64,000 bases of DNA from a plasmid. Shown here piece by piece: positions 13,076-55,966 of the stretch. The stretch lies in NCBI RefSeq assembly GCF_056746865.1, contig NZ_JBWKMP010000003.1. The stretch is one strand, 5' to 3'. Position 1 is the stretch's first letter; the number at the start of each line of letters is the position of its first letter. Under the pieces are notes generated by a model, which had not been told where the DNA came from, ran no database searches, and saw only the letters and a program-made list of their open reading frames with translations. The position numbers and the translations under genes are program-made.

Positions 13076-13782
13076 TGGATATCTGCATTCTCGAAAAACT
13101 ATCAATGACCAGCATTGAGATTGCGGAGCTGGTGGGAAGTCAACACTCTGACGTTAAACGTAGTATTGAGCGTATGGTTGCTCGAAGCATTATCCGAAAA
13201 CCGCCAATGGCTGTTTTCGAAAAAATCAATAACTTAGGATTGCGTCGTGGCGTTGAGGCTTACGTCTTCGAAGGCGAGCAAGGCAAACGAGACAGCATTA
13301 TTGTCGTTGCGCAGCTCTCTCCCGAATTCACCGCCCGGCTGGTGGACCGCTGGCGCGAACTGGAAGAACAAGTACGCCAGCCGTTGACCGAAATAGAGAT
13401 GATCGCTGCAATGGCTGCGAATGCAGTTCAGCAGCAAAAGCGGCTTCATGCTGTTGAGTCAAAGGTTAGCCAGGTCGCTGAAACCGTCGAGCAGATCAAG
13501 AAAGGCAACATACCAGAAGGCTACATTGGCTACCGCCAACTGGCGGCGAAATGCGGCCTGACTGAAGCCAAATGCCGTAACCTGGTCAACGCTTACCGGA
13601 TCCCCACAGATACGCATGAGTTTTTGACGCCAGAGGGGGTATTGTCGCGTCGTACTATTGTGGCCTTATCTCCCTTCATGAATGCCTTTACCCTGATGAT
13701 GTCGGAGGCTGAACACCGAGGAAAACGCTGGTATCACCCAAGGATGGGGCAATTCCAGGTAATCGGTTGGGGAGGCGAGTGA
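13075..13782 (+). CDS. Rha-family regulatory protein / antirepressor (Ant position), copy 1
   Basis: 235 aa. The N-terminus MTSIEIAELVGSQHSDVKRSIERM.. is the Rha domain pattern. Translationally coupled to icd. Confidence 0.75.
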   Translation: MDICILEKLSMTSIEIAELVGSQHSDVKRSIERMVARSIIRKPPMAVFEKINNLGLRRGVEAYVFEGEQGKRDSIIVVAQLSPEFTARLVDRWRELEEQVRQPLTEIEMIAAMAANAVQQQKRLHAVESKVSQVAETVEQIKKGNIPEGYIGYRQLAAKCGLTEAKCRNLVNAYRIPTDTHEFLTPEGVLSRRTIVALSPFMNAFTLMMSEAEHRGKRWYHPRMGQFQVIGWGGE

Positions 13783-13979
13783 TGGACATCATGCAGGCGG
13801 TAAAAAAAATCGGGGAAGGACAGGCTGAAGTGTGCCGCCGTAAAGCATGGAGTGTTGGTGTATGGGTCTGGCCTGATAATAGCTCTACTACTGGATGGTT
13901 TTGTATTAATGGATACCAGATCCGGGAAGTCGATTTATCGACGGCGGATGCAGTCGGTAATGATTGGATCGTAACTTGA
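13782..13979 (+). CDS. Small DUF2829 (Tad2-like)-type protein
   Basis: 65 aa from the ATG overlapping the Rha stop. Pattern ..RRKAWSVGVWVWP....DWIVT matches the C-terminus fused to the Rha paralogue at 55025-55966. Confidence 0.6.
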   Translation: MDIMQAVKKIGEGQAEVCRRKAWSVGVWVWPDNSSTTGWFCINGYQIREVDLSTADAVGNDWIVT

Positions 13980-13987
13980 AGTGTGAT

Positions 13988-14012
13988 GCCCCGGCTTGGC
14001 CGGGGCTTTTTT
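13988..14012. terminator. Bidirectional intrinsic terminator
   Basis: GCCCCGGC..GCCGGGGC followed by TTTTTT, between convergent genes. Confidence 0.75.
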
Positions 14013-14496
14013 ATGCCTCATTAGTTGAGGTTGCTGCGTCTCCGACTGGTAACAGAGCTGTATTGCGTGGTTCGCCAGCAGGCCAGCGATAGCCAGACAC
14101 TCTTGATGTTGGGAATGCGCGAATATTAACAGCATCCCCCTGGTTCCCACCCAAGACAAGCAGATCGCCATTGGCGCGGTGTCCGACAACAAAGCCTACA
14201 TGCCCACCGCCTGCGCGAGTAAATACAACGATACATCCGTATGCCGGTGTATCTAATTTCTCGCCCCAATCCAGATAGGATTTTGCCGACTCAAATCTTG
14301 TTGAGCGGATACCTACACGTTCCAGCATTGCACCAACAAATGCAGCGCACCACGGCGTTTCGTCGTCTTTAATTCCGCTGCGCTTAATATCCCGCCAGAA
14401 CTGAACGATCTCAGGATTGTGTTTCGCTCCTTTTATTTCGGTGACTCCAATATTTTTACGGGCCTCAATAAGCCAGCGAGGTTCAATGTTTGCCAT
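14011..14496 (-). CDS. NlpC/P60-CHAP-like peptidoglycan hydrolase (TIGR02594-type)
   Basis: 161 aa. ..ETPWCAAFV..(catalytic Cys context)..GGHVGFVVG.. is typical of this cell-wall hydrolase family. Confidence 0.7.
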   Translation of the reverse strand: MANIEPRWLIEARKNIGVTEIKGAKHNPEIVQFWRDIKRSGIKDDETPWCAAFVGAMLERVGIRSTRFESAKSYLDWGEKLDTPAYGCIVVFTRAGGGHVGFVVGHRANGDLLVLGGNQGDAVNIRAFPTSRVSGYRWPAGEPRNTALLPVGDAATSTNEA

Positions 14497-14633
14497 ATAT
14501 TTCTCCCGCTCATGGGTTAATAAGTAGGCAAACTATGGTGAGTATGTGATTTTGACGGTAGTGTCGTTCATCCCTGAAAATAACATTCTCCATACCCTCT
14601 CAAACCGAACCGCTTAAGGCGGATTTAACGGTT

Positions 14634-17600
14634 TTGAGGGGGCTTCCTTTGGACAAAATAATTGATTCAATTAGCCAGGCCACCAGCATTGGGGCGCTGA
14701 TTGAAATTGTTAGTCGGTTGCATAAACCGCGAGCTGTAGTGACCTTTGGCGTTAAGAAAGTCGATGGCGTCAGTATTCAGAAAACACGCCGGACAGCAAA
14801 CAACGCCGCAGTAGATCTTCTTAATTCCCTTCCGCCCGGCTTCGATGGAGCGAAATTAACTGACGAACAGCGTCAGATTCTTGCCGGGTATACCGGTGAA
14901 GGCGGCCTGACAGATGGTGAGGGCAGCCAATACGAATACTATACGCCACAGTTTATGGCAGAAGGTATATGGGATCTCTTCGGCGACTACGGTATTGATA
15001 GCGGTCACGTACTGGAACCGTCAGCAGGCACAGGTATTTTCCAGGAGACAAAACGGCAGGGCATGATAATGACCAGCGCCGAACTGTCTCCGATCTCCGG
15101 TCGAATAAACCAGCTTTTGCACCCGGAAGATGATGTGAATATCGGGGCGTTTGAGGCGCTGGCGGCGAAAGATGCAATGTATGACCACGCAGTTGGTAAC
15201 GTACCGTTTGGCGAAGGGCGTTCCGGCGTCGCCGGGCTTGATCCGGCATATGCAAACGAGAAGAACGTTGGCAATTATTTTGTGCTGCGCACGATCGACA
15301 AGGTTAAGCCTGGTGGGCTAATTGTATTGGTGGTGCCGAATGGCATGACCGATGGTACGAAATACAAAAAATTGCGCGATAAAGTCAGCCGTAAAGCGGA
15401 ATTTTTGGGCGCGCATCGTATGCCTTCTGGTACGTTCAGCGAATCCGGTACAGATACCGTGGTGGACGTATGGGTATTGCGTAAACACCCGGAAACCTTC
15501 CTGGAGATGATCCCCGACACGGATGATGCAACGCTCAAATCGGCAAACGTCCTTTGGGATACCTTCCTCAAAGGGAAATGGTTTACAACCGAAGGGAAGC
15601 GATTTGTTTACGGCGACATGGAACGCACCAGCTTCCGCAATACCCTGGTGGTGAAAAAGGACGGTCGTGTATCCAATGAGTCGATGAAAACCGCGTTATC
15701 ACGCCGCTTTGAAAGCCGTATTAATTGGGATTTGCTCGGAGTAACTACCCAGGCATGGCAGGGCGCAAAAGTAGGGGATAAGCGTCTTGTAGGCGGTATC
15801 TGGCATGAGTTTGATGGCCTGAAATGGGTTAAGGACACGACAACCAAATCCTCCGCGCTTGATGTAAGTCGATATGGTGTTTCGACGTTTGGCGATCTGC
15901 AGATCGCGTTCCAGTCAACAAACGGGATTCTGGCTTTGTCATGGGACCAGATATCGGCGATCGCGTCCGACTATCCATCGGTTGTCAGTGATGAAGTGGC
16001 AGCAATGATTCGCTTTGCTGGCAAACAGCGAGAAAAAGACAGGGAGCGCGTTATGCGCGGTGCGTTGATAGGGCAGTTGATCAACAAGGCACTTGATTTG
16101 CGTAACCTGGGGGTGAACGTTGATGACAAACTGGCAGATGCATCCCGCCTGGCGGCAGCAGAAGTTGCGAAGTATGGACCACCGCACGCGATTAAGCTGA
16201 ATGGGCTTGCTGAAGCTGGCGCTAAAAACTGGATGACGTTCACTGGCAATGTGAAACAGGATGGTTCCACTTCTGACCTTCTGGCAGGGCGACTTGATGT
16301 AACGGATGGTGCTGCCGGTATTGACTTTACACGTCCGGAACAAGTGATAGCACATCTTTTCAGTGATGTAGCCCTTAATCCTATAACGCTGGGCGACTTT
16401 CGTGAGGCGTTTGCTGGTGAACTGCCAGAGGACGACGACGCGGCCCTTGAATACCTGGCGAAATTTGATGATATCGCTATTGATGGGTATGGCTGCCTGC
16501 TGCCGATGGACCGCGCCACCAGCGGCGATATTGTAACCAAAACAGCATTGCTGGTGGGCTGGCGTGATGCATCAACAGGTGAGCAGAAAGCGAACTTTGA
16601 GCGTCAGTTGGCGAAAATCGAAGAGAAACGCATTTTCACGCCACTAAATAAAGTCACCGTTAATCTGAACGCCCGCTGGCTGGATCGCCGCTTGATAAAA
16701 GAGTTCCTGGCAGAGCAGGGCTATGACGAGTTTAAGTACACTGAACCTGATCTGAAGGTCGTCGATGGCATTCTGGTATCTCCGGACGATTACGAAGGTA
16801 AGGACGGGGTATTTACCGGCTATCAGCTACGAACCGTAAACGGCAAAAACGGGAATGAGTTCAAGAAGGCCAACAATAAAGACGGCTTCCTGAACCAGTT
16901 AGAAAACTACCTGAACGGTGTTAAACCGCGTGGGCAGAACGCTAACGAGTACCTGGATAAAATTGCTCAACTGGAAGTTAGCTTTAACGACTGGTTACGC
17001 ACCCACCCGCAGGCGGATCAGATAGCCCGTGACTATAACGACGCATTCAATGGCTTCATTCCGTTCACGCACTCTAACGCACCGCTTGGCCTGGAAGGGA
17101 TTAGTGGAAAGCGCATTCCTCTGACTTATCAGAATGAAGAAGTTCGTCGCTTGTCAGAAGATGGGCGCGGCATCATGGGATTTGGTACCGGGCTGGGTAA
17201 AACCACGACCGCGCTTGCGCTTGAGGCGTATAACTTCGAAACAGGTCGTACTAAACGCACGTGTATTGTTGTTCCGAAGGCGGTTTATCAGAACTGGTAT
17301 CACGAGGCACAGAGCTTCTACAGTGCTGATGCCTTCGCCAATATGATGTTTATCGGTCTGGATGAAGTTCGTGATGACAGCGGAAATATTCTGACCGCTC
17401 CGGTGCTTGATGAAAATGGCGAACCCCGCCTCGACAGTAACGGGCAGCCTCTTACCAGAAATGTTGTGAAAGAGTCCGCCAGCGCCGTTATCGTTCAGCG
17501 CATGAACATGATCCCGTCGTCAAATTGGCGAACGGTCATCATGACAAAAGAACAATTCGCGTCTATCCCGCTACGAGAAAAAACCATCGAGGAGAACTCA

Positions 17601-20600
17601 CAGCAAGCTGTCTTTAATGCTGTGGAAATGGGGCGTCTTGACCTGGCGTCTGGTAAACACCGTGATGCGCAGAAGAAGAACAAGATTAAGGATCAGGCCG
17701 CGAATACCGGTACAACGAAGAAGCAGAATATCCCGTACTTTGAGGATATGAACTTCGATAGCGTGATAGCCGACGAGGGGCATAACTACCGCAACTCCTT
17801 TAATGCCGGGCGTGAAGCGGGACAACTGGCATATTTGCCTAACCCGGCAGTATCCAAGATGGCCCGCGACATGGCTGTAAAAGCTGCGTACATGATGAAA
17901 CGCAACAACGGGCGTGGTGTAGTCATGCTGACGGCAACACCGCTGGTGAACAGTCCGATTGATGCCTTCAACATGCTGTCTACTGTCATTCCGCAGGAAG
18001 AGTGGATGCGCATGGGCATCATTACGCCTGATGATTTCGTTCGTGTGTTTGGTAAAACAGCCACAGTTCAGGTCCAGAAAATTTCCGGGGAAGTGGAAGA
18101 GAAGCAGGGGCTGGTTGGCTTCCAGAACCTTGATGGCCTGCGTGGTATTTTCCATCGCTGGACTACTCTGAAGACTGCTGCGGACGTCGGGGCGACGGTT
18201 AAAATCCCTGATATTGTCGAGAATACCTTGCAGATCCCGATGACAGGGGAGCAGGAGGCTGCTTATGAAGAGCTTCGTAAGCGTGCACAGGAGTTAAGTA
18301 GTAAAGATGCGCTGACGGTTGATGAAAACGGGCATATCACAAACGAAAAACCGGATGATTTCATCTTCTCCATCATCCGCGACATGGATAAGGTTGCTAT
18401 AGATCCGGATCTGTATGCCAGTGCGATTACATTCCAGTTCCCCGTTGAGCTTGCAGACAAGGTAAAAGCTATTGCTGATGCCCTGCCAAAAGTAGCTGGC
18501 GGTAAAGTGGCAGATGATGCAGACGAGGCCGAAGAAGACGGCGCTGGTGGGCTGGTTAGTACGCGCACCAGTAAGGTAGTGAAGACCACCTTTAGTGAAC
18601 ATCCGGCGCATGTTGAAATACGTGCCAGCATTGAACTGGAAGCTGAAATACTGAAGGCCATTGCTGCCGCCGGGATTGATATGCAGCAGGTATCACACCC
18701 AATCCCGCCGAAGTATGCCGCGCTGATCGAAAACCTTCGTGAAGGTCTGAAGAACGGTAAACAAATTGTCTTCATTGATGAAAAAGCCCAGCACCAGAAG
18801 CTGCGCCGTATTATCGCCAGTGCACTGCAAATGCCGGAGCAGGAGATAGGCATTATCAATGCGACGACCGTTAGCCAGGCTGGCGGCATCAAGCTGAAGA
18901 AGGTGAATAAGCCGACTGAACCTACTCCGAATAAAAACGGTGAATACAAAGAAGGGGCATGGGAAACCTACTACAGCAAACTTGCCCAATATGAGGATTA
19001 TCTCTCAGCTAAAAATGATGCTGGCCTTGAGGGTATGGAAGGCATTGCCGCCGACTATAACGAAGGGCGCACGCGCATAATTATCTGTAACAAGAAGGCT
19101 GAAGTAGGTATTAACCTGCATATCGGGACAACCGATATCCACCACCTGACACTACCCTGGACACCAGCCAGTATCGACCAACGAAATGGGCGCGGTGCGC
19201 GCGTAGGTTCACCGCAAGAGAAGGTCAATGTTCACTACTATTGTGGCAAAGGCACATTCGACGACTTCCGTCTGGATACGCTGAAACGTAAGAAAGACTG
19301 GATCAAGATGGTAATGACCTCCGACATGTCAGAGATCGCCAATGGTGATGCGGATGATGCTGATGAACGCGCCATTATGCTGGCGGCAAACCCGGAAGAA
19401 CGCCGCGCAATCATGGCTCGCCAGGCGCAAGAGCGTGAAGAACGTCTGAAACTGAAAGCACAGCGCGAGGCCAACAATGCTCTCGATATCTACCTGAAAG
19501 CGGCAAACGCCGCTGGAAAAGATATCGGCATGATGGAGACAGAACTGAAAAGCGCGATGGAACAGATAGAGTATTACCAGCGAAATCTTGACGACCTGAT
19601 AAAAGCGGGTACGAACAGGAATGGGCAAAAATTCGCGCTTGAGCAGTTGAGTAGCTACAGAAAACGTGCGCGGGTGCTGCGGTTTGCGATCACCAGGGCA
19701 AAAGACGCGGATACCATAATGAAACGCTCTCGTGGTGATGTGGAGCGCGCTATTAAGTCTGGTGTGCTGGATATCAGTATCGATGTTATTCAGAACCCAC
19801 AGGAATATATGCGCACTGACAAGAATATCCTGTTGCATAAAGGTAGTTATTACCGTGCAGTCATTGATGATCGCGAAACAACAGCGATTGTCCGGGTGGA
19901 AAAAATTGACGGTGAAAAAGCACAATACCTCTGCCGTATCGCCTGGCTGGATAGAGCAAGTCGTTACGCTCGATCACCGGGGTCAATCGTTACATTGCCG
20001 TTTGACTCTGTGATTGAAGCGGTAACTTTTGAAGAGGGGGTAGCTGAATCGCGCGCAACGGCTGCGCGTGGTGTTCAGTGCCACCAGCTATCAACAATAC
20101 TTACTCGCGATCAGTTCTATGATGCTATTCGCAATGGGGTAATGAATGTTATTGCTGGTAAACCTGGTAATGCATGGGGCGGTGGGTCAGCTATTAAATA
20201 CTGGGCATATCGCACAGATGATGGTCAGATCGCGCTGTCATCGGCCTATGATGGCGTGATAGGCCAAAAAATCGGGCGAGCATCGGATATAGCACCTGAA
20301 CGATGGATATATCCAGATGGCAACGATGAGGCGCTGAAGCGTGAAGTGGCAAAAATACAAGCCAGTGATAACCCGCTGAATATCGTGGACGGCGAGGGAT
20401 TCCTCCAGGCATTGTATGGGTATGATTACATCCAGGGAATGCAGGCATGGGGCGCACAGGCAACGATGGATGATGTTGTCCAGGAGTTCGAAAACTGGAT
20501 GGCTGGGCGTGGTCTGTCAGGTCGTTCGCTTAATAAAGTCACTTCTGAAGATATTCTTAGCTTGTTCCGCAAACCGTCCGGAGAAGGTCTGGAATCATTC

Positions 20601-21485
20601 TGGAGGACCGTGCTGGCATACCGTTTATTCAAGGGCAGAATGAAAGCCTTTAGCAATATCGATGATATTGAACGGATGTTTAATCAGGTCAAGATCGCCA
20701 AAATTAAGACGAAGATCGAAAAAACACGTTCTGCGCTGGTGGCCTGGCGCGATGCATTGTTTGAGCAATATAAATCACTCAGTGATGCAGATGGATGGGC
20801 GGCATTGGAACAGTTGGCGAATAATGGGGTAGATGGAGCGAAACTCGCCATAGTCCAGGCTGATAACCCCCTGGAATCACCGGCAGCACAGTGGATTAAG
20901 GTGGGGGCTGTCATCAATGCATTTGATGAAAAACACATTAGTAAGGACGATTTTGCTGATGCTGTTTCTGTTAATCGCCTGGTAGAAATGGCTACCCGCC
21001 GCGCCCGTGAGTTGAAAGACGGTGACTATGTGAATGAGTTGCCGGATGCGCTCAAATCAGCAACGTGGCAAGACTATGTATCGCTGAAAAACGGCGGGGC
21101 CACCGAATCAGAGATCGCGGAAAGGCTTGAACAGGCTGAAAGCAAAAGAGAAGAGCAGGCGGCAGTGGCTGAAGCAAGAGCTGATGAAGCGGCGAATGAT
21201 GACTATATCATTGTGGTTAATGATAAGCCGATTCGCGCTAAGGCGCGTGTTCGCGGGCGCTGGTGGAGTGTCAGCGAGGACGTCGGTGCGGTTTATCTCA
21301 TTGCCGACCAACCTGGTTCCTCGACAATACGGAACGCCAAAGACGCGATTAAGAAGATTGGCGGGCGTTTCTGGAATTTTGAAGCAAACCCGGTTGCTGA
21401 TGTGAACTTTGACCGTCCTGCATGGATGGTATCTACGCGTTACTCGTTAGATGAACTGCGTAAAATAATCGCCGATGCGGCCTAA
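14634..21485 (+). CDS. darB: DarB-like antirestriction protein: N6-adenine methyltransferase fused to a DExH helicase
   Basis: 2283 aa (P1 DarB is about 2255 aa). MTase motifs VLEPSAGTGIF and GNVPFG. Helicase motifs GFGTGLGKTT, DEGHNYRN and QRNGRGARVG. The start may be the TTG at 14649 (SD GAGGGGG). Confidence 0.9.
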   Translation: MRGLPLDKIIDSISQATSIGALIEIVSRLHKPRAVVTFGVKKVDGVSIQKTRRTANNAAVDLLNSLPPGFDGAKLTDEQRQILAGYTGEGGLTDGEGSQYEYYTPQFMAEGIWDLFGDYGIDSGHVLEPSAGTGIFQETKRQGMIMTSAELSPISGRINQLLHPEDDVNIGAFEALAAKDAMYDHAVGNVPFGEGRSGVAGLDPAYANEKNVGNYFVLRTIDKVKPGGLIVLVVPNGMTDGTKYKKLRDKVSRKAEFLGAHRMPSGTFSESGTDTVVDVWVLRKHPETFLEMIPDTDDATLKSANVLWDTFLKGKWFTTEGKRFVYGDMERTSFRNTLVVKKDGRVSNESMKTALSRRFESRINWDLLGVTTQAWQGAKVGDKRLVGGIWHEFDGLKWVKDTTTKSSALDVSRYGVSTFGDLQIAFQSTNGILALSWDQISAIASDYPSVVSDEVAAMIRFAGKQREKDRERVMRGALIGQLINKALDLRNLGVNVDDKLADASRLAAAEVAKYGPPHAIKLNGLAEAGAKNWMTFTGNVKQDGSTSDLLAGRLDVTDGAAGIDFTRPEQVIAHLFSDVALNPITLGDFREAFAGELPEDDDAALEYLAKFDDIAIDGYGCLLPMDRATSGDIVTKTALLVGWRDASTGEQKANFERQLAKIEEKRIFTPLNKVTVNLNARWLDRRLIKEFLAEQGYDEFKYTEPDLKVVDGILVSPDDYEGKDGVFTGYQLRTVNGKNGNEFKKANNKDGFLNQLENYLNGVKPRGQNANEYLDKIAQLEVSFNDWLRTHPQADQIARDYNDAFNGFIPFTHSNAPLGLEGISGKRIPLTYQNEEVRRLSEDGRGIMGFGTGLGKTTTALALEAYNFETGRTKRTCIVVPKAVYQNWYHEAQSFYSADAFANMMFIGLDEVRDDSGNILTAPVLDENGEPRLDSNGQPLTRNVVKESASAVIVQRMNMIPSSNWRTVIMTKEQFASIPLREKTIEENSQQAVFNAVEMGRLDLASGKHRDAQKKNKIKDQAANTGTTKKQNIPYFEDMNFDSVIADEGHNYRNSFNAGREAGQLAYLPNPAVSKMARDMAVKAAYMMKRNNGRGVVMLTATPLVNSPIDAFNMLSTVIPQEEWMRMGIITPDDFVRVFGKTATVQVQKISGEVEEKQGLVGFQNLDGLRGIFHRWTTLKTAADVGATVKIPDIVENTLQIPMTGEQEAAYEELRKRAQELSSKDALTVDENGHITNEKPDDFIFSIIRDMDKVAIDPDLYASAITFQFPVELADKVKAIADALPKVAGGKVADDADEAEEDGAGGLVSTRTSKVVKTTFSEHPAHVEIRASIELEAEILKAIAAAGIDMQQVSHPIPPKYAALIENLREGLKNGKQIVFIDEKAQHQKLRRIIASALQMPEQEIGIINATTVSQAGGIKLKKVNKPTEPTPNKNGEYKEGAWETYYSKLAQYEDYLSAKNDAGLEGMEGIAADYNEGRTRIIICNKKAEVGINLHIGTTDIHHLTLPWTPASIDQRNGRGARVGSPQEKVNVHYYCGKGTFDDFRLDTLKRKKDWIKMVMTSDMSEIANGDADDADERAIMLAANPEERRAIMARQAQEREERLKLKAQREANNALDIYLKAANAAGKDIGMMETELKSAMEQIEYYQRNLDDLIKAGTNRNGQKFALEQLSSYRKRARVLRFAITRAKDADTIMKRSRGDVERAIKSGVLDISIDVIQNPQEYMRTDKNILLHKGSYYRAVIDDRETTAIVRVEKIDGEKAQYLCRIAWLDRASRYARSPGSIVTLPFDSVIEAVTFEEGVAESRATAARGVQCHQLSTILTRDQFYDAIRNGVMNVIAGKPGNAWGGGSAIKYWAYRTDDGQIALSSAYDGVIGQKIGRASDIAPERWIYPDGNDEALKREVAKIQASDNPLNIVDGEGFLQALYGYDYIQGMQAWGAQATMDDVVQEFENWMAGRGLSGRSLNKVTSEDILSLFRKPSGEGLESFWRTVLAYRLFKGRMKAFSNIDDIERMFNQVKIAKIKTKIEKTRSALVAWRDALFEQYKSLSDADGWAALEQLANNGVDGAKLAIVQADNPLESPAAQWIKVGAVINAFDEKHISKDDFADAVSVNRLVEMATRRARELKDGDYVNELPDALKSATWQDYVSLKNGGATESEIAERLEQAESKREEQAAVAEARADEAANDDYIIVVNDKPIRAKARVRGRWWSVSEDVGAVYLIADQPGSSTIRNAKDAIKKIGGRFWNFEANPVADVNFDRPAWMVSTRYSLDELRKIIADAA

Positions 21486-21521
21486 CAGATAAGGAGCGGC
21501 CCCAACCGGGGCCGAATTTGA

Positions 21522-21956
21522 ATGACGACATTAATTGACACTGTAAAACCGACGGAATCCTACCTTGAGGACATTTTGCCGCAGGCGCTCAATGGCAGGA
21601 GTGAAGAGGCGTTTCTGGATGCATATCTGGATGGCATGGCGGAAAGGCTGAAAAGAGATCCACAGCTTTATCATCTTTATGGGCCGTGGTGGCCTGCGCT
21701 TAAAACGTTATTGCTGGAGCGTGGCGACATATCATTTGGACAAGTTGTAGATAGTGATGTGGCAGAAATCTACAAAATGAGTCGCCCGGCGCTTACGGTT
21801 TTAGCCGGGCATCTGTATTCGAGCGATCGCCTGGAAAATGACGCGGTATACAATCCCGTTCATGCTCTGGAAGTCGCGCCTTATGCTGATGATACAGAGC
21901 CATACGTATACACAAGTTACGACGAGTCTATAGAGAAATATCGAATCGTGGGGTAG
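21522..21956 (+). CDS. Hypothetical protein
   Basis: 144 aa, tightly packed after darB. The SD is separated from the ATG by a hairpin (see findings). Confidence 0.7.
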   Translation: MTTLIDTVKPTESYLEDILPQALNGRSEEAFLDAYLDGMAERLKRDPQLYHLYGPWWPALKTLLLERGDISFGQVVDSDVAEIYKMSRPALTVLAGHLYSSDRLENDAVYNPVHALEVAPYADDTEPYVYTSYDESIEKYRIVG

Positions 21957-21958
21957 CC

Positions 21959-22219
21959 ATGCGGAAGAATCGTAGGTTTACGATCGACGACTTAAAAGCG
22001 TACTCACAAGGGAAGGGATACGCCCTTGAATACCACCGTTATAAGCGGGTATTTACCCTGCGGCATATAGAAAACCCTTCGAAATGGGGATGGATTTATT
22101 TTCCGCACACTGACGATAAGCTGGTGGGACTTGTTGATGATTTATCCTATGAAGGATGGATGATTGCTATCGACAAGGCGGTTACGGAAATTAACGAACC
22201 TGATAAAATAAACCATTAA
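21959..22219 (+). CDS. Hypothetical protein
   Basis: 86 aa, starts 2 nt after the previous stop. Confidence 0.65.
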   Translation: MRKNRRFTIDDLKAYSQGKGYALEYHRYKRVFTLRHIENPSKWGWIYFPHTDDKLVGLVDDLSYEGWMIAIDKAVTEINEPDKINH

Positions 22220-22395
22220 AAATAACAAGTTGGGTAAATGACATACAATTTACCCGGCTTGTTGACCCGCATCACCATTTACTCTAAAAACAAGTCCGAC
22301 CTGTTGCATCCGCCTATCTCTTCAGTAGTATTCCCCTCGGTTTTGATAAAACTAACGCTCTTGTTATTATCGTGTTCATGATTTCAGGAAGTTTG

Positions 22396-22409
22396 TGTTA
22401 GAAATTTGA
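22396..22409 (+). promoter_or_regulatory. Operator half-site TGTTAGAAATTTGA
   Basis: Motif family member overlapping the start region of the VRR-NUC gene. A possible promoter, TTGATA-16-TATTAT, lies at about 22343-22370. Confidence 0.5.
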
Positions 22410-22852
22410 TGCGAAGACGCAGGCATCATAGTGCGTATTCTGAAATATCCCCGCACGCTGCTGCACTGAGAGAGTTAGAAAGAAATCCTGACTTATTAAA
22501 ACGGAATTACGAACATTACGAACAGGTTCGCGTTCTGGATTGGCTGTATCGCAACATGCGATACGTGTATGAGCACACACACTCAACACCGAACGGCGGC
22601 CTGAGAGGCAAAAGGACAGCCATTAAGATGGTGGCAGAAGGTCAGAAGAAGGGCTATCCGGACCTTTCTATTGACCTTGCTCGTGGTGGGTATCACGGAA
22701 TGCGCATTGAGATGAAGCACGGGAGAAACCGTCTGACTCCCGAACAGCTCGTCTGGATGACTCGCCTCACGGAAGCAGGCTATTACTGCTTTGAGGCGCG
22801 CAGTGCCGATGAAGCCATAAAAGCTATCACGGAATATGTAAATCTTGATTAA
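22409..22852 (+). CDS. VRR-NUC domain nuclease (PD-(D/E)xK)
   Basis: ..KKGYPDLSIDL..GMRIEMKHGRNRLTPEQLVWMTRLTEAGY.. is the VRR-NUC signature. Start uncertain (ATG 22409 or TTG 22406). Confidence 0.75.
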   Translation: MRRRRHHSAYSEISPHAAALRELERNPDLLKRNYEHYEQVRVLDWLYRNMRYVYEHTHSTPNGGLRGKRTAIKMVAEGQKKGYPDLSIDLARGGYHGMRIEMKHGRNRLTPEQLVWMTRLTEAGYYCFEARSADEAIKAITEYVNLD

Positions 22853-22866
22853 ACGGAGAAATCGTT

Positions 22867-23067
22867 TTGCGTTTACTTAACGTGGCTGAACTTATCCCTG
22901 CCGGTGCTAACGTTGTTGCTCGTCGCTGCTCATGGCCTCATTCTTTCTGTATAGAGCTTAAAAAGATGGATGATGGGGCATTAGAAGCCCGAAACATAGT
23001 TACCGGCGACAAGGTATGCATTACCCCGGAAAGCGCGAAAGCCAATGATTGGGAGTTTGTTCATTGA
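22867..23067 (+). CDS. Small DUF2829 (Tad2-like)-type protein
   Basis: 66 aa, TTG start with SD ACGGAG. Pattern VARRCSWP......ANDWEFVH. Confidence 0.5.
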   Translation: MRLLNVAELIPAGANVVARRCSWPHSFCIELKKMDDGALEARNIVTGDKVCITPESAKANDWEFVH

Positions 23068-23375
23068 GCAGAAAACACCACGTAAATCTGACGTTTGCTG
23101 ATGACGCCGGAAGAACCAGAAGCATAACCATGAAAGTTGCTTCCAGGAAAGTAACCGCGCCACTTATACGAGAGGCCGTAAGTGAACTTGATATGAGTGA
23201 GAATGCAGCTCTGTTATCGGTAAGCTGGCTGGGGAAAATGACGGATCAGGAATACTCGGATGGTATACCCCACGGTGAGCGGCAGATAGTAAAGCGCGCG
23301 TTTAGAATTTCAGAGGTAGTTGTCGTACTGATAGCTTTGATTTATATGGCATACATGCTACTCCAACACGTCTAA
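23049..23375 (+). CDS. Hypothetical protein with C-terminal transmembrane helix; start uncertain
   Basis: The C-terminus VVVVLIALIYMAYMLL is hydrophobic. Possible starts are TTG 23049, TTG 23064 and ATG 23130. Confidence 0.5.
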   Translation: MGVCSLSRKHHVNLTFADDAGRTRSITMKVASRKVTAPLIREAVSELDMSENAALLSVSWLGKMTDQEYSDGIPHGERQIVKRAFRISEVVVVLIALIYMAYMLLQHV

Positions 23376-23385
23376 ACGGTCATAA

Positions 23386-23408
23386 ACCCGCCAGTTGGCG
23401 GGTTTTTT
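23386..23408 (+). terminator. Intrinsic terminator
   Basis: AACCCGCC-AGTT-GGCGGGTT followed by TTTTTG. Confidence 0.8.
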
Positions 23409-23460
23409 GTTGCCTGAGTCTTTTTATTGAAATTGCATACTAATAAAATATGTTAGAAAA

Positions 23461-23474
23461 CTAATTTCAAGAAA
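23461..23474 (+). promoter_or_regulatory. Operator half-site TGTTAGAAAACTAA
   Basis: Lies 11 nt upstream of the 23485 start. Confidence 0.55.
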
Positions 23475-23484
23475 GGGAACAAAC

Positions 23485-26039: not shown

Positions 26040-26114
26040 GATGGTGTAGCTCAGTGGTAGAGCAGTTGGCTGTTAACCAACTGGTCGGTGGTTCGAATCC
26101 ATCCACCATCGCCA
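26040..26114 (+). tRNA. tRNA-Asn (anticodon GTT)
   Basis: Full cloverleaf: acceptor GATGGTG/CACCATC, D stem GCTC/GAGC, anticodon stem GTTGG/CCAAC with loop CTGTTAA, T loop TTCGAAT, encoded CCA. Confidence 0.95.
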
Positions 26115-26116
26115 AT

Positions 26117-27424: not shown

Positions 27425-28000
27425 ATGTTAACGGCGAACGATAACGCGTATTTAGAAGATGATCTCGTTTTGAGTGACTTTATAGGGCGACGAGAATGCT
27501 GGACGCAAAAGCGCGAGGAGCTTTATGCAGCGTTAGTTCGTAAAGGCGTCAACATCGAAACCGCACAGAACGGTGATATGACAGTGGTAAGTGTTGGACT
27601 GCACGGCGTAAGTGTGTCAGCAATCAATCATGAGCCGTACATTGCGTTATCCGAGTCGATGGTAAGGTTAGTTAAGTTCCTGAAGTACACAGAAGCGAAT
27701 AACGTGCTCATCGCCAAAAAGAACATCCCGTTCTCATCGGCCTTTTACTGGATGATGAAGGGGCTTGATGCCCGGCGAACATCATGGCCTAAAGGGAGCT
27801 ATATATCGATGCTCCGTGGCAGTGTTGGTAGCAAAGAAAAGCTCGTCGAATTCCTGCCGGAAGAGGCATTCGATATTGTTGAAGGTTGTGATGTGATGGT
27901 TATGCCTCGCCTGGTAATGATGAATGGGGATTTACAGGCGCAGACAGACTGGTTTGCAACTGGAGTTGATATTATCGCTACTGACTGGGAGGTTTTTTGA
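27425..28000 (+). CDS. Hypothetical protein with C-terminal DUF2829 (Tad2-like) domain
   Basis: 191 aa with SD AAGGAG. C-terminus ..FYWMMKGLDARRTSWPKGSYI....IIATDWEVF. Confidence 0.7.
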   Translation: MLTANDNAYLEDDLVLSDFIGRRECWTQKREELYAALVRKGVNIETAQNGDMTVVSVGLHGVSVSAINHEPYIALSESMVRLVKFLKYTEANNVLIAKKNIPFSSAFYWMMKGLDARRTSWPKGSYISMLRGSVGSKEKLVEFLPEEAFDIVEGCDVMVMPRLVMMNGDLQAQTDWFATGVDIIATDWEVF

Positions 28001-35640: not shown

Positions 35641-36291
35641 ATGAATAACATGCCAACGAAAGAGCTTTTTAAGTTCCTTCCCAAATACAAAGCTCACAAA
35701 AACGTTAGTGCATCGAAAATTAAAAATGTTGTTATTTTCGGAGTAACTGATGCCCCACTTTGGGGCTGCATCGAACTCGTTGAACCAAAAGGGGCAACAG
35801 TTTGTGTTGACGCAATGTTTTTACAAAAACACCGACCAAAAACTGGCGGGTATCTGATCGTTTATGAAAACGGTTATCTGTTCTATGCCCCGGAGAAACC
35901 ATTTGAGGAATGCTATGGCCTGGTTAACGACGCCTCCAAAAATGGAACCACGGTCATCATTACGGATGACAACGGCGTGATGATTAATCTTACTGGGAGC
36001 GTAACTATTTCTGCTGGTGGCATCACCACCCAGCAAGAAGAAATCGACCTTGAAGCAGCCGACTTCTCTGATGCGCTAATGTGGTTGAAGGAAGGCAAGA
36101 AAGTTGCCCGACGCGAGTGGAAAGGCGAAAAGCAATTCTGCTGGTTAGTTCTCGCTGGAAGCGTCAATTTACACGGCATTCACGTTCCTTATGGTGACCA
36201 TTTTGTATTGAAAGATGCACAAAATATGGACAGCGTTTGGTTGCCGTCTGTGGATGATTTACTGGCCTGTGACTGGTTTGTTGTGGAGTGA
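35641..36291 (+). CDS. Protein with C-terminal DUF2829 (Tad2-like) domain
   Basis: 216 aa. The C-terminus FSDALMWLKEGKKVARREWKG..VWLPSVDDLLACDWFVVE is the clearest DUF2829 pattern in the window. Confidence 0.75.
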   Translation: MNNMPTKELFKFLPKYKAHKNVSASKIKNVVIFGVTDAPLWGCIELVEPKGATVCVDAMFLQKHRPKTGGYLIVYENGYLFYAPEKPFEECYGLVNDASKNGTTVIITDDNGVMINLTGSVTISAGGITTQQEEIDLEAADFSDALMWLKEGKKVARREWKGEKQFCWLVLAGSVNLHGIHVPYGDHFVLKDAQNMDSVWLPSVDDLLACDWFVVE

Positions 36292-47228: not shown

Positions 47229-47232
47229 TCCA

Positions 47233-48300: not shown

Positions 48301-48332
48301 CGGTTTTGAGTGCATAAACGATGTGTTCAGGA

Positions 48333-50853: not shown

Positions 50854-50854
50854 C

Positions 50855-51735: not shown

Positions 51736-52235
51736 GACTGAACTCCTTTGCGAATCTGTTCCGCCCATTCTTCAAGGGATTTCTCCGCATATTCACCGGA
51801 CAGGCCATCAATCGGATGCGGTTCATTAGCCAACTCTTCTTTCGCTGACAAAATCATGCGTGTAACGTCGAAAACTTCACGCAAAGACTTATTGATAAAT
51901 CCGTGATTGAACGCAGCAGCAAGACGGCTTGCGGTGTAGTTAATCCCCTCGTTGCGTGCCTCCGCACGTATTTCAGCCAGGAAAGCGTCGGTGGCTGACA
52001 TATTTCCTGTTGCCTTCATGGCCTTCAAAATAACCAGAACGCCATCTTGCCCAACCAACTCGGAGATAATCTCAGTGTTGTCGCCAACAACCTCACAGAA
52101 TGCCTGAACAGCTTTACGAGCAAGTGCATTCTCCGCCGCCAGCGCCGCGCGCTCTTTCTCAAGTCGGGAAATTTCCGTTACATACTCAGCGTTACGCTCT
52201 GCCAGTTGTGCGGGCGTTAAACCTTCAGACTTCAT
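51732..52235 (-). CDS. Ead/Ea22-like protein
   Basis: 167 aa. TDAFLAEIRAEARNEG, ends AEQIRKGVQS. Confidence 0.75.
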   Translation of the reverse strand: MKSEGLTPAQLAERNAEYVTEISRLEKERAALAAENALARKAVQAFCEVVGDNTEIISELVGQDGVLVILKAMKATGNMSATDAFLAEIRAEARNEGINYTASRLAAAFNHGFINKSLREVFDVTRMILSAKEELANEPHPIDGLSGEYAEKSLEEWAEQIRKGVQS

Positions 52236-52542
52236 GCACTCTCCTTTCGAAATAAACGTACTGATTAATCATGCCCAGGGGCATTTCGAACTTTTCTGCG
52301 ATCTCACGGCGGGGAACGCCACACTGATGAAGCTGCCGCGCCAGCTCTATATCGCTCTGCCGGTATTTGGCTGACTGGTGAAAGTCACCTTTCAGAATCA
52401 TGCTGATCCGCAATTGCCGCGCTTTAGTCCTGACAGCACCACCGGTACGCCCGATCAGTCTCCCAATACCCTCGACTGTCATAGTCCCGGCGCACTGGCG
52501 GAGTATCATGATTTCTGCCCTTCCCCATCCCCGCCAGCTCAC
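52225..52542 (-). CDS. Small HTH protein (GTG start)
   Basis: 105 aa with two HTH-like segments (MTVEGIGRLIGRTGGAVRTKARQL; VPRREIAEKFEMPLGMINQYV). Confidence 0.65.
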   Translation of the reverse strand: MSWRGWGRAEIMILRQCAGTMTVEGIGRLIGRTGGAVRTKARQLRISMILKGDFHQSAKYRQSDIELARQLHQCGVPRREIAEKFEMPLGMINQYVYFERRVHEV

Positions 52543-53150
52543 GCAGAACTCCTTCTAACCAAAAGAACGCCATCTTCAGAAACAACGTTGCAGGACTTCA
52601 GGTAATTCATTGCCTCTTTCGGTAATGGATTCTTTGGATCGGCGCTTGCCAGGGATTTCGATAACCTCATGATAAATTTGATCATTACCTTCTGACGGAG
52701 CTTGTGCTCATGGGATGCAGACAGGTAATAGGAAATGGTATGGGCTAAACGCTCACGAAGCTGTTCTGTGCCGTGATATACAGCAGCGATATCACGCAGT
52801 GCATTGACCAGTTCCCGGTAAATATGCGGAGCAACCTGGCATTCAATGTTGGTTGGTGACTCATAAATTACATTCAGCCCCAGCTTTTGAGCCAGCTCGT
52901 GCTCTGCACGAGCGCCAACTGATTCCTCCCACCCCTTGAGCAAATAGACCGCATTAGCCGAACGCACCATTGCAAGGCAAATATCCATGTATTCGCTCTG
53001 GCAGAGGCCAGCAGGTAACAGCGCCGGATTCAGAACAATATGCCCTACCTCCATCAGCTCTTTTGCTTTCGAAAAAAACGCTGTGCGGTTGTAGTCGGGA
53101 TAACCAGTCATCGGACCCGCGATGTAAATTTTCATAATGCGTTTTGACAT
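52539..53150 (-). CDS. DUF4406 / nucleoside 2-deoxyribosyltransferase-like protein
   Basis: MKIYIAGPMTGYPDYNR..GWEESVGARAEHELA is the DUF4406 pattern. The C-terminal half shares a module with 39980-40615. ATG at 53150. Confidence 0.75.
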   Translation of the reverse strand: MSKRIMKIYIAGPMTGYPDYNRTAFFSKAKELMEVGHIVLNPALLPAGLCQSEYMDICLAMVRSANAVYLLKGWEESVGARAEHELAQKLGLNVIYESPTNIECQVAPHIYRELVNALRDIAAVYHGTEQLRERLAHTISYYLSASHEHKLRQKVMIKFIMRLSKSLASADPKNPLPKEAMNYLKSCNVVSEDGVLLVRRSSA

Positions 53151-53302
53151 CAAAGTTTCCCCAGGAACGTTACGCAAAAGTTAATGAGAGCAAAGAGTTC
53201 AATGCCCAGCTCAAACAACGCCAGGACAGTGAAAAACAGGGCATATAGCAACCCAATTTCTGTACCGGATTGCTGGTGGATTGCACTTATTGCGACAAGC
53301 AT
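53150..53302 (-). CDS. Candidate 50-aa membrane peptide, first gene of the leftward operon (below track cutoff)
   Basis: SD AGGAGG. MLVAISAIHQQSGTEIGLLYALFFTVLALFELGIELFALINFCVTFLGKL. TGATG overlap with the next gene. Confidence 0.45.
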   Translation of the reverse strand: MLVAISAIHQQSGTEIGLLYALFFTVLALFELGIELFALINFCVTFLGKL

Positions 53303-53346
53303 CATGACCTCCTGATATAGCGTCTGAAAAAAGTATCTTCATTTTG

Positions 53347-53376
53347 TGTTAGAAAATCAATTTTGATTTTCTAACA
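53347..53376. promoter_or_regulatory. Perfect palindromic operator pair TGTTAGAAAATCAA-tt-TTGATTTTCTAACA
   Basis: Lies in the divergent control region between the leftward operon and ref. In P1, ref is C1-controlled. Confidence 0.7.
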
Positions 53377-53421
53377 CTTTTGATCAACCATAGCGGCGAT
53401 GTAGACAAACCGGGTATTTCT

Positions 53422-53997
53422 ATGAAGCAAAGCTATTGGGAGAAACAGACACAAAAAGCCCTGCAAAAACTGGCTGATCCGAAATGGCGGGAGGAACAAA
53501 GGGCAAAGCGTCTTCAGCAAGCTCAACGCCAGCAGCAGCGTGCGCGAGAAAAAGCCGCATCGCCTGAATATCGGCAAAAGAAAATTGAAAAAGCGAAGCA
53601 ATATGAACAGCGAAGAAAAGAGAAGGCCGCTTCTGCTCCTGTCAAAAAAACTCGCGCGTCACGCGGCCTGAAAGGCAGAACACTCACAGCAGATGAGCGC
53701 CGGATACAAACTGCCATCGGTGCTCTCCCCTGCATTGCCTGCCATATGCACGGACAGCATAGCCCTGTGGTATCCCTGCACCACATCTTCGGGAGAACAG
53801 CAGAAAACGCGCATAAATACGTCCTCCCTTTGTGTAAATGGCACCATCAACACGCAGCGCCAGCAGAGATCCGCGAGCAATACCCCTGGTTGGTTCCTGT
53901 TCATGCTGATGGAAAAATAGGCGGCAAAGCAGATTTCAGGCGGCACAATGCTGATGAAATGACGTTGTATCAGATGGTGACTGAATTAATAAATTAA
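53422..53997 (+). CDS. ref: Ref-family recombination enhancement nuclease (HNH)
   Basis: Lys/Arg/Gln-rich N-terminal ~95 aa, then LPCIACH..HHIFG....LPLCKWHHQ (HNH/zinc pattern of Ref). The ATG at 53422 is preferred to the TTG at 53380, which abuts the operator. Confidence 0.75.
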   Translation: MKQSYWEKQTQKALQKLADPKWREEQRAKRLQQAQRQQQRAREKAASPEYRQKKIEKAKQYEQRRKEKAASAPVKKTRASRGLKGRTLTADERRIQTAIGALPCIACHMHGQHSPVVSLHHIFGRTAENAHKYVLPLCKWHHQHAAPAEIREQYPWLVPVHADGKIGGKADFRRHNADEMTLYQMVTELIN

Positions 53998-54007
53998 TTT
54001 TCTAACA
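53994..54007 (-). promoter_or_regulatory. Operator half-site TTAATTTTCTAACA
   Basis: Overlaps the ref stop and lies upstream of immI-like module 2. Confidence 0.55.
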
Positions 54008-54328
54008 TTTTAAGTTGAATTGTGAAATTCGCCGTTGTACATTCACAACCGATTGGTACACCGGTCAACTTTTTGAGACAAACCGTTTGGTTTTTCGTAT
54101 GATTGCCGCCGCCATACCAATGGCGGTGCAATATAGGTGGCTGAAAAGCCCCCGTTGACTCACGGTGTTCCAACCTTTATTGCGCCGCCACCAGACCGTG
54201 GAACAGTCGATGGCGGCTCCGAAAGCAAGGAGTCACTACACTATGAACAGCTACTGTCTTTTCCCATCACTCGTTATCCGCCACTCACGCGATAATCTGC
54301 ATTCTTTACTCGCGCTGGGGGTGTCAAA

Positions 54329-54496
54329 ATGACCGTTCGCTATCTCAACTTTCAAATCCAGAACATCACTGGCGGTTGCTATGACTGGTTTGTCACTCTC
54401 GGAAAAGAAGTGATCACCGGGAAGCTGGATGAAGTGAAAGCTAAAGCAATGGCCTACGCCTGCAAGCAAGCCCAAAAGAAGAAAAGAAAAGCATAA
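54329..54496 (+). CDS. Candidate 55-aa protein in the immI-2 leader (below track cutoff)
   Basis: MTVRYLNFQIQNITGGCYDWFVTLGKEVITGKLDEVKAKAMAYACKQAQKKKRKA. The ATGA overlaps a 29-codon upstream ORF (54243-54332). Confidence 0.4.
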   Translation: MTVRYLNFQIQNITGGCYDWFVTLGKEVITGKLDEVKAKAMAYACKQAQKKKRKA

Positions 54497-54601
54497 GAAA
54501 ACACACAGTTGCGCCCTGGCATTATCGTGGGGTATATTTCTACGGCACCTTAGAAAAACGGGTGCCGGGATTGGAACCCCGGATAATGTCAAAGGCGACA
54601 C

Positions 54602-54624
54602 AGACGCCGAACGCGTCTTTTTTT
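54602..54624 (+). terminator. Intrinsic terminator between the a1/b1 sites and c4 copy 2
   Basis: AGACGC-CGAAC-GCGTCT followed by TTTTTTT. Confidence 0.75.
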
Positions 54625-54673
54625 GTGTCATGCCATCGCACAGCCATACTTAGCGTTTAGCTCAGAGATCAAT

Positions 54674-54753
54674 GGTAGTGCTGGCTGGGCTGCCGAAAGG
54701 CAGGCCGGTTCCCTTTGACGCCGGTAGTTCCAACCCAGTCAGTGCTACCGCCA
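54674..54753 (+). ncRNA. c4: C4-type antisense immunity RNA, copy 2
   Basis: A 16-bp terminal helix GGTAGTGCTGGCTGGG / CCCAGTCAGTGCTACC (three G.U pairs) is followed by GCCA. Inside are a GAAA-tetraloop hairpin, a loop with CCTTTGAC (b') and unpaired GTTCCAA (a'). These complement GTCAAAGG (54791-54798, overlapping the icd SD) and TTGGAAC (54760-54766). It is 80 nt, compared with about 77 nt for P1 C4. Confidence 0.7.
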
Positions 54754-54809
54754 TTGAGATTGGAACCTCACGCGGTAGCTCCTTAACTTAGTCAAAGGAG
54801 GCTGCCAAT

Positions 54810-55025
54810 ATGGCTACTATCCCTACCCCAACTCATTCTGAATTTATCTGGCGTTTCTATTCCTGCCAAAAACACCTTTATATCTGCGTAATGGCTGCTA
54901 CCGAAGCAGAGGCGCGCTCATACCTTCCCGAAGAACCCTGCATTTTTGCTGCTCGCTTCACTCTTGATGCGATGGAGATCCTCAATTACTGGAATCTGCC
55001 AATGAACTGCGTGGAGGTGCACTGA
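54810..55025 (+). CDS. icd: Icd-like protein, copy 2
   Basis: 71 aa with EFIWRFYSCQKH..AATEAEARS. TGATG overlap with the downstream antirepressor gene. Confidence 0.7.
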   Translation: MATIPTPTHSEFIWRFYSCQKHLYICVMAATEAEARSYLPEEPCIFAARFTLDAMEILNYWNLPMNCVEVH

Positions 55026-55966
55026 TGAATCTGTCCATCTCTCAAAAAGCGACAATGACCAGCATTGAGATCGCGGAACTGGTAGGAAGTCGCCCAGATA
55101 GTGTGAAGAGAACTATCGAAACACTGGCTAAAAAGAGTGTGATTCAATTTCCACAATCTGTGGAAATTGAAAATAAACAATCAGTTGGCCCTCGTCGATT
55201 TTCCAAGGCTTACATCTTTGAAGGCGAACAAGGAAAACGAGACAGCATCATTGTCGTCGCGCAGCTCTCTCCGGAATTTACCGCCCGGCTGGTGGACCGC
55301 TGGCGCGAACTGGAGAATGCCCGGGTACAGTTAAAATCCAAAGCCGAAATCCTGGCCGAAATGGCGCAAATGCATCTTGAGCATGAACGCCGGATCAACG
55401 CCGTTAATGCCCAGGTAGCCGAAGTATCGGCACAAGTGTCCAGGGTCACCGAAACACTTGAGCAGATCAAGAAAGGCAATATTCCAGAAGGCTACATTGG
55501 CTATCGCCAGTTGGCGGCAAAATGCGGCCTGACTGAAGCCAAATGCCGCAACCTGGTCAACGCTTACCGGATACCCACTGATACGCATGAGTTTTTAACT
55601 CCCGACGGTTTGCTTGCGCGACGCTCCATTGTGGCCCTGGCCCCCTTCCGGAAAGCCTTTAAGCAGGTTATGTCGGAGGCAGAACCACGTAACAAACGCT
55701 GGTATCATCCCAGGATGGGGCTATTTCAGGCCATTCACCATCCTGTGCCTGAAAGTCCAAAGGCAAACCTGTCGTTGCATACCGCCAGAGAGAAGATTAA
55801 AACAGGGTATGCAACCGTATGCCGTCGAGCATCCTGGCCTGAAAGTGTCTGGGTATGGCCCGAAAGAGGCTCACGGAAAAACTGGCGCACCATTCGCGAC
55901 GGCAAGATCTGTGCGATTGATTTACAGCCAGAAGATGTAGCAGCGACCGACTGGATTGTTAGTTAA
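55025..55966 (+). CDS. Rha-family antirepressor fused to a C-terminal DUF2829-like domain, copy 2
   Basis: 313 aa. The N-terminal 230 aa are paralogous to 13075-13782. The C-terminal ~65 aa (..VCRRASWPESVWVWP...ATDWIVS) are paralogous to the separate gene 13782-13979. Confidence 0.8.
   Translation: MNLSISQKATMTSIEIAELVGSRPDSVKRTIETLAKKSVIQFPQSVEIENKQSVGPRRFSKAYIFEGEQGKRDSIIVVAQLSPEFTARLVDRWRELENARVQLKSKAEILAEMAQMHLEHERRINAVNAQVAEVSAQVSRVTETLEQIKKGNIPEGYIGYRQLAAKCGLTEAKCRNLVNAYRIPTDTHEFLTPDGLLARRSIVALAPFRKAFKQVMSEAEPRNKRWYHPRMGLFQAIHHPVPESPKANLSLHTAREKIKTGYATVCRRASWPESVWVWPERGSRKNWRTIRDGKICAIDLQPEDVAATDWIVS

Follow-up and report, generated by a model that had tools for sequence, protein, structure and literature searches.

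Proteins of the Tad2/DUF2829 family have so far been seen as free-standing sponges for Thoeris, CBASS and Pycsar signals. The Tad2 protein of phage SPO1 (gp34.65) is a tetramer, built of V-shaped dimers that form through helix alpha2 and strand beta2 and interlock via helix alpha1, and it contacts glycocyclic ADP-ribose (gcADPR) through W25, N26, W73, S76, T78 and D79. HgmTad2 (AcrIIA7) has equivalent gcADPR residues and binds cyclic dinucleotides with an insertion after beta2. Two further systems bear on what follows: the immI operon of phages P1 and P7 (c4-icd-ant1/ant2), which opens with the C4 antisense RNA and its a1b1 targets, and the Rha/Roi regulators (Phage_pRha; Roi of HK97 and HK022). 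We found no description in the literature that links Tad2/DUF2829 to antirepressors, to the lysogeny switch or to C4 RNA. Here we analyzed a 64,000-nucleotide stretch of a plasmid contig (NZ_JBWKMP010000003.1, assembly GCF_056746865.1), the whole of which is called the window below. Since positions 13000-24000 are 93.6% identical to Escherichia phage D6 and positions 52000-58000 are 99.8% identical to the E. coli plasmid NZ_LR890273 (92.8 kb, replicon rep_cluster_1704), the window, judged by its sequence, is a D6-like, P1-type phage-plasmid. Our best overall explanation, which we hold with moderate confidence, is that it encodes one small alpha/beta fold, that of Tad2/DUF2829, five times and in two grades: two canonical domains and three minimal copies of about 65 amino acids, two of type A and one of type B. 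The five copies are the following.

13782..13979, plus strand: minimal Tad2-fold protein type A, 65 amino acids; full-length match to PF11195 with an E value of 0.047, AlphaFold2 model, own family phrog_7385
22867..23067, plus strand: minimal Tad2-like protein type B, 66 amino acids, in the darB-ulx-pmgM-X-pmgR-pmgS block
27425..28000, plus strand: two-domain protein, 191 amino acids; N-terminal domain with no known match, then a canonical DUF2829 domain (residues 103-190, nucleotides 27731-27994)
35641..36291, plus strand: two-domain protein, 216 amino acids; N-terminal module, then a canonical DUF2829 domain (residues 141-215, nucleotides 36061-36285)
55769-55963, plus strand: type A domain, residues 249-313 of the fused protein encoded by 55025-55966; 40% identity to the 13782 product

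All five open reading frames (ORFs) or domains were present where an earlier reading of the letters alone, which we call the sequence-only reading, had placed five related domains. Family hidden Markov models (HMMs) found exactly five copies in the window; they also found five in the whole of the near-identical NZ_LR890273, with none in its remainder, and the same five genes occur in phage D6 (orf17, orf11, orf6, orf114 and orf82). The motif on which that reading had relied proved slightly less regular than claimed. A regular expression for it ([KR][KRT]..W ... DW.[VF]) hit four of the 982 six-frame ORFs of the window against a mean of 0.03 in 300 shuffled controls, but it missed the 35641 copy, in which the spacing is off by one residue. 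Relative to D6, all five domains are under purifying selection. The ratio of nonsynonymous to synonymous substitution rates (dN/dS) ranged from 0.05 to 0.52; it was 0.05 for the 27425 domain, 0.14-0.16 for the fused type A domain and type B, and 0.52, a value resting on few substitutions, for the 13782 gene.

The canonical domains are recognized by Pfam PF11195 (Tad2-like, formerly DUF2829; gathering score 25 bits), and their scores bear out the placement of DUF2829 at both C-termini, with 35641 as the clearest case: 66.7 bits (E 2.8e-18) against 40.4 bits (E 4.4e-10) for 27425. The 35641 sequence also matched solved structures, namely ModTad2 (9eib, E 7.5e-11), Tad2 8v3e and SPO1 Tad2 (8sme, E 5e-6). 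The 27425 domain aligned with SptTad2 (8wjd) weakly but over the full domain, and the best match of the canonical domains to a Tad2 sequence in the PDB had an E value of 6e-12. The small copies are another matter, as all three fall below the gathering score. The 13782 product matched PF11195 over its full length at 14.7 bits, the isolated C-terminus of the 55025 product scored 10.9 bits (E 0.69), and 22867 gave no match. For type A, such sub-threshold full-length matches came from three different sequences (E 0.012-0.69), and a diverged relative, P0019, reached 23.9 bits (E 6.2e-5). We then relied on profile comparison and on structure. With hhalign, type A and type B aligned with each other over 64 columns at a probability of 95.4% (reversed control, 0.5%). 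Against canonical domains, the probability was 79% for type A (a small alignment, matched along its full length), 66% for type B, along the N-terminal half, and 90.5% for the pooled small families; no reversed control exceeded 0.5%. The first runs, made with thin alignments, had given an uninformative 8-12%, which improved once diverged members were added. Among all window ORFs, the type A and type B HMMs were each other's best non-self match, and the type B HMM also picked 27425. ModTad2 and the 35641 C-terminus both matched the family phrog_643, and type A did so weakly.

The AlphaFold2 model of the 13782 product (mean predicted local distance difference test score, 75.6) has the element order alpha1-beta1-beta2-beta3-beta4-alpha3-beta5, that is, the fold and order of Tad2 except for helix alpha2. 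In a Foldseek search of the PDB with this model, ranks 1 to 16 were all Tad2, with query template-modelling (TM) scores of 0.72-0.77, followed by an abrupt fall to a probability of 0.2 and a TM score of about 0.33. The structural comparison thus gave for 13782 the outcome that the sequence-only reading had anticipated. Its assignment of all five copies to DUF2829 stands in part: Pfam supports it for two domains, fold and remote homology support it for 13782 and the 55025 C-terminus, and at the level of PF11195 it fails for the three small copies. We have high confidence in a common ancestry of type A with Tad2 and moderate confidence in the homology of type B; the three small copies are remote relatives, not Pfam members.

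The minimal subfamily corresponds to phrog_7385 and phrog_7206, both labelled 'unknown function', with no library annotation, and it is narrow: a merged-profile search of 1.84 billion representative proteins returned 15 matches. Among these diverged members, P0019 and P0020 group with 13782 as type A, and P0017, P0018, P0021, P0022, P0023, P0025 and P0026 with type B. Word-indexed searches with the two small proteins and the 35641 domain found only three to six close relatives, an HMM built from six canonical-domain sequences did not detect the small copies, and when genome, viral and metagenome contigs were scanned for further diverged members of type A, either D6-like loci alone or nothing came back. 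Two candidates, P0016 and P0024, were judged false positives: they are Cys-rich repeat proteins of about 1000 amino acids that share only the motif 'CRERSWRRGVWLPC'. They carry up to ten copies of 'C(L/V)CRERSWRRGVWLPC', which is like the type A core motif and which we took as chance or compositional.

To compare ligand pockets, the positions described for SPO1 Tad2 and HgmTad2 were mapped onto all sequences, in SPO1 numbering. The 35641 domain (W-K-G and W..S.DD) keeps W25, W73, Ser76 and D79, with N26 replaced by Lys; the 27425 domain (W-P-K and W..T.VD) keeps W25, W73, Thr76 and D79, with Pro in place of N26. The minimal copies are far poorer. Type A keeps only W25 and the invariant Asp at 79, with Val or Ile at position 73 (in P0019 and P0020, Tyr or Phe), W25 alone remains in type B, and all three are without W73 and N26; the minimal models have neither alpha2 nor the beta2-beta3 insertion. 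On the basis of this mapping and of the missing alpha2 and insertion, the canonical copies would be credible sponges with an altered pocket, and the minimal ones not sponges in the way described: they would not be expected to bind gcADPR, or to tetramerize, in the manner known for Tad2. The suggestion that five copies reflect sponging of immune signals is therefore plausible for the two canonical domains and does not extend to the three small ones. The 35641 gene of the window is itself unusual among its alleles. Within 36100-36290 it reads W-K-G, where the D6, Punavirus and other E. coli alleles retain the canonical W-N-G, and its beta2-beta3 insertion is about ten residues shorter, which suggests a diverged ligand pocket in this allele.

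The two type A copies share a genomic context, whose elements, all on the plus strand, are these.

12598..12650, plus strand: c4-a1b1 target element of immI-1; Rfam RF03163, 55.2 bits (gathering 46.7)
12719..12804, plus strand: C4 antisense RNA of immI-1; Rfam RF01695, 69.6 bits (gathering 45); loop of the same type as the C4 RNAs of loci L004 and L005
12851..13075, plus strand: icd-like gene 1; ORF whose D6 homologue is annotated as an Icd-like cell division inhibitor
13075..13782, plus strand: Rha/Roi-type putative antirepressor, split form, 235 amino acids; Phage_pRha 31.0 bits (cut-off 29.9), phrog_63 'anti-repressor Ant' E 1.4e-45
54545..54623, plus strand: isrK-like element upstream of the immI-2 C4; Rfam RF01394, 61.3 bits (gathering 50); also present in six other fused-type loci
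54668..54755, plus strand: C4 antisense RNA of immI-2, divergent in sequence; Rfam RF01695, 77.1 bits
54810..55025, plus strand: icd-like gene 2; ORF with an Icd-like annotation in D6 and in the plasmid (RefSeq); TGATG overlap with the next gene at 55023-55027
55025..55966, plus strand: Rha/Roi-type putative antirepressor fused to a type A domain, 313 amino acids; phrog_63 over residues 2-313 (E 3.5e-58), phrog_7385 over residues 252-312 (E 3.2e-12)

Because a C4 RNA, an icd-like gene and a Rha/Roi gene precede each of them, both type A copies end P1-style immI operons. The two operons differ in how the last domain is joined. Residues 1-237 of the 55025 product share 65% identity with the 13075-13782 product (E 1e-110), and residues 249-313 of the 55025 product share 40% with the separate 13782 product (E 1e-16). 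In immI-1 the stop TGA at 13780-13782 overlaps the start ATG at 13782-13784 in a TGATG, with GGGAGG 6 nucleotides upstream, an arrangement read from the sequence by which 13782 would be translationally coupled to the Rha/Roi gene. The split-versus-fused pair described in the sequence-only reading, with the small gene coupled after Rha, is thereby confirmed. The fused 313-residue architecture was also found in D6 orf82 and in D6-like contigs. Viral and metagenome collections supplied 83 related loci, in which the immI-1 copy was always a separate ORF of 65 codons, while the immI-2 copy usually lay within an ORF of 308-313 codons. A C4 RNA was present about 1 kb upstream at every locus with enough upstream DNA, 36 of 36 split and 33 of 33 fused (69/69 in all); a C4 model run with nhmmer missed six divergent C4 RNAs, which Rfam found. 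The fused and split forms are paralogues from one duplicated ancestral operon, the association having been retained rather than having arisen twice.

Some features of these operons deserve separate mention. The C4 RNAs of immI-1 and immI-2 differ from each other (GCCAGTCTGTCAACCC vs GCCGGTAGTTCCAACCC), which suggests two immI specificities in one element, and the isrK-like element of immI-2 occupies the place held by a1b1 in immI-1. A duplicated c4-icd region was already noted in a D6-like Salmonella plasmid (PMC6799933). In several D6-like contigs the fused gene is frameshifted, at different places (L047 2274-3198 and L048 2256-3198; also L041, L049, L050 and L058), and in such broken genes (164+118 and 212+120 amino acids) the small-domain ORF remains intact. 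The frameshifts could mean that the antirepressor part is decaying or that the gene has split again, or they could be assembly errors.

Diverged relatives separate the contribution of C4 from that of Rha/Roi. P0019 and P0020 share 32-38% identity with the 13782 product and are encoded on other phage-plasmid contigs of about 90 kb and at a different genomic position. Their genes start 44-52 nucleotides after a C4 RNA of the immI-1 type with a1b1 targets upstream, and there is no icd, no Rha/Roi and no ant gene. At L004 (3752-4291) and L005 (3746-4207), and also at L006, the type A gene is the sole gene behind a complete a1b1 and C4 cassette; in L004 and L005 this cassette is flanked by a phrog_11861 gene and a spanin-like gene, and the site is empty in E. 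coli D6-like plasmids. Since P0019 and P0020 follow C4 alone, the constant partner of type A is C4 control, not Rha/Roi as such. The functional link between the domain and the antirepressor or immunity switch that had been proposed from the fused and split genes is strengthened by the C4 RNA that heads both operons, by its presence at all 69 loci and by the gene standing directly after C4 in two relatives, but the split and fused states themselves do not count as independent associations.

The window operons resemble immI of P1 and P7 in the order of C4 with its a1b1 targets and an icd-like gene whose stop overlaps the next start. They differ in that the gene after icd is of the Rha/Roi type, with Phage_pRha and Roi matches, and not P1 Ant1/2; in that each ends in, or is fused to, a Tad2-fold domain; in that there are two copies with divergent C4 RNAs; and in that, in the diverged relatives, the C4 cargo is the Tad2-fold gene alone. 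The window Rha/Roi protein is like the known regulators in having an N-terminal Phage_pRha domain and a Roi-like remainder. Its residues 1-237 are 59-63% identical to proteins of a Klebsiella phage and a Shiga toxin (Stx) phage; those matches end at residue 237 and, as far as annotations go, no small gene lies directly downstream, and the fused 313-residue form is limited to one 50%-identity cluster. P1 Coi, a C1 inactivator of 69 amino acids, was considered as a functional analogue of type A and rejected: the size is similar, but the sequence is unrelated and the composition different. No coi is annotated beside c1 in D6. What was known before is the RefSeq names for the two canonical domains and the duplicated c4-icd region; for a Tad2-fold domain coupled or fused to a Rha/Roi protein under C4 control we found no precedent in the literature consulted.

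Homology, fold, gene order, C4 RNAs, coupling, fusion and purifying selection are the ground from which we infer all the biochemical functions proposed here. The canonical domains at 27425 and 35641 would act as oligomeric sponges of Thoeris, CBASS or Pycsar-type signals; that they sequester nucleotide immune signals as Tad2 does is a proposal to which family membership and partial pocket conservation lend middling confidence. In the minimal copies, loss of the beta2-beta3 insertion together with alpha2 would mean loss of the Tad2 dimer interface and of the cyclic-dinucleotide pocket. Type A closes C4-icd-Rha/Roi operons, as a gene of its own in one (13782) and as the C-terminal domain in the other (55025), and because C4 heads these operons, its expression would be under C4 control. 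Its production, alongside that of the antirepressor, would be confined to infection of a naive cell or to the lifting of secondary immunity, and it might then serve as a partner- or ligand-binding module of the antirepressor pathway and not as a classical gcADPR sponge. We tentatively propose, therefore, that type A is a C4-gated partner- or ligand-binding module acting with, or as, an antirepressor.

Several points weigh against these proposals. Because the D6-like loci are all related, the 69 of 69 count in effect as a single lineage, to which two diverged cases are added; the antirepressor role of the Rha/Roi protein is itself putative; and an anti-defence gene could have come to lie in immI simply because an early operon is a convenient site. 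Searching PDB sequences with the type A profile and with a combined type A and type B profile returned no Tad2 match. Both canonical alleles of the window have N26 replaced. The Tad2 proteins studied so far are free-standing and about 90-105 amino acids long, whereas the canonical domains of the window lie C-terminal to unrelated domains of about 100 and 140 amino acids. In addition, residues 56-126 of the 35641 product are weakly like the Dec decoration protein of phage L (6e3c, E 0.034), and one survey of Tad2 deliberately left Dec-fused homologues out of its data set.

The main rival makes type A alone a minimal anti-defence protein of a new sort, expressed early, which we find doubtful yet worth keeping in view; the broader version, in which all five copies act against host defences as sponges or inhibitors, the two immI operons are just early-expressed sites convenient for an anti-defence gene and the Rha/Roi fusion arose by accidental loss of a stop codon, we consider unlikely. 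Tad2 proteins are highly versatile in function and place their pockets at different interfaces, and type A keeps W25 and the invariant Asp79, with an aromatic residue at 73 in P0019 and P0020. Type B adjoins the darB/ulx anti-restriction genes, and a C4-gated operon would, by analogy with P1 immI, be expressed straight after infection. Several D6-like contigs with a frameshifted Rha/Roi and an intact small-domain ORF also fit an anti-defence role. On the other side, the minimal copies are without alpha2 and the insertion, that is, the dimer interface and cyclic-dinucleotide pocket, and without W73 and N26; at least 33 loci stably keep the fusion; and two diverged elements retain the whole C4 and a1b1 apparatus for a single gene. 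This last observation is easier to explain if that gene is a switch effector. A stronger form of the switch proposal, in which type A is itself the effector or an indispensable subunit of the C4-gated operon, as a (co-)antirepressor that inactivates C1 (31787-32887, minus strand) or controls Rha/Roi, seems to us quite unlikely.

It is improbable that the three small proteins are not DUF2829 homologues at all and owe their likeness to a convergent RRxxW ... DW motif on a generic beta-rich shape. Such a reading could point to the Pfam scores below threshold, with 22867 unmatched, to the failure of small-protein profiles to find Tad2 sequences in the PDB, and to the unrelated Cys-rich repeat proteins that the motif alone also draws. 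Against it stand full-length collinear alignments with reversed controls near 0%, a type A model that matches Tad2 only before the scores collapse, an element order equal to that of Tad2 minus alpha2, and the score of P0019 on PF11195. That the minimal copies are decaying remnants of DUF2829 with no present function is very improbable: the narrow distribution, the lost pocket residues and some frameshifted fused genes would fit, but the dN/dS values of the fused type A domain and type B (if less so that of split type A, on its few substitutions), intact ORFs at 84 loci, 32-40% identity retained, with an unchanged position behind C4, in diverged phage-plasmids, and the conserved synteny of type B all argue against decay.

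Type B has neighbors of its own. In relatives it is syntenic, with a VRR-NUC (pmgM-like) gene on one side and pmgR/pmgS on the other, and with DarB and an Ulx-sized gene (142 amino acids) upstream of it. As a paralogue it has diverged and has been retained within the darB-ulx anti-restriction/pmg block, and these neighbors suggest an anti-defence or virion-associated role. Two of the five genes, at 28190-28405 (equivalent to 22867-23067) and 60765-61706 (equivalent to 55025-55966) of NZ_LR890273, are absent from the distributed gene table, which is known to be incomplete, so that they may still be annotated in the original record.

The names carried by the canonical proteins vary. RefSeq labels the homologue of 35641 a DUF2829 domain-containing protein, and a 225-residue homologue in Punavirus phages already has a DUF2829 annotation. 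The 27425 homologue (NZ_LR890273 32861-33436) is named 'MW1434 family type I TA system toxin', after an 81-residue gene product of S. aureus phiSa2 whose listing as a toxin comes from a purely bioinformatic study. NCBIfam has no model matching any of the five window proteins; because no current NCBIfam model fits the 27425 protein, this is probably a legacy label and a misleading name for a DUF2829 protein. Pfam gave no match for the N-terminal domains of 27425 and 35641. That of 35641 (window 35641-36060) is modular, residues 21-99 (phrog_11049) being missing from D6 orf114, P0012 and P0013. The 35641 gene is preceded by a dUTPase gene and followed by an IsaA-like gene, and three tRNA genes lie just upstream of 27425 (window 26040-26189 and 26897-26969), as they do in D6.

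These results indicate that a single phage-plasmid can carry five paralogues of the Tad2 fold, among them a stripped-down subfamily of about 65 amino acids that sequence libraries have left unannotated, and that type A is consistently the cargo of C4 operons, whether alone, coupled to, or fused to a Rha/Roi-type putative antirepressor. If type A is an anti-defence factor, it would represent a new minimal class and define a predictable place to look for such genes. If it is instead an effector of the switch, a sponge fold would have been recruited into the lysis-lysogeny decision, and induction might respond to a nucleotide second messenger. A role in the switch would tie the evolution of anti-defence proteins to lysogeny control in phage-plasmids of the P1/D6 type, a group that commonly carries resistance genes in Enterobacteriaceae.

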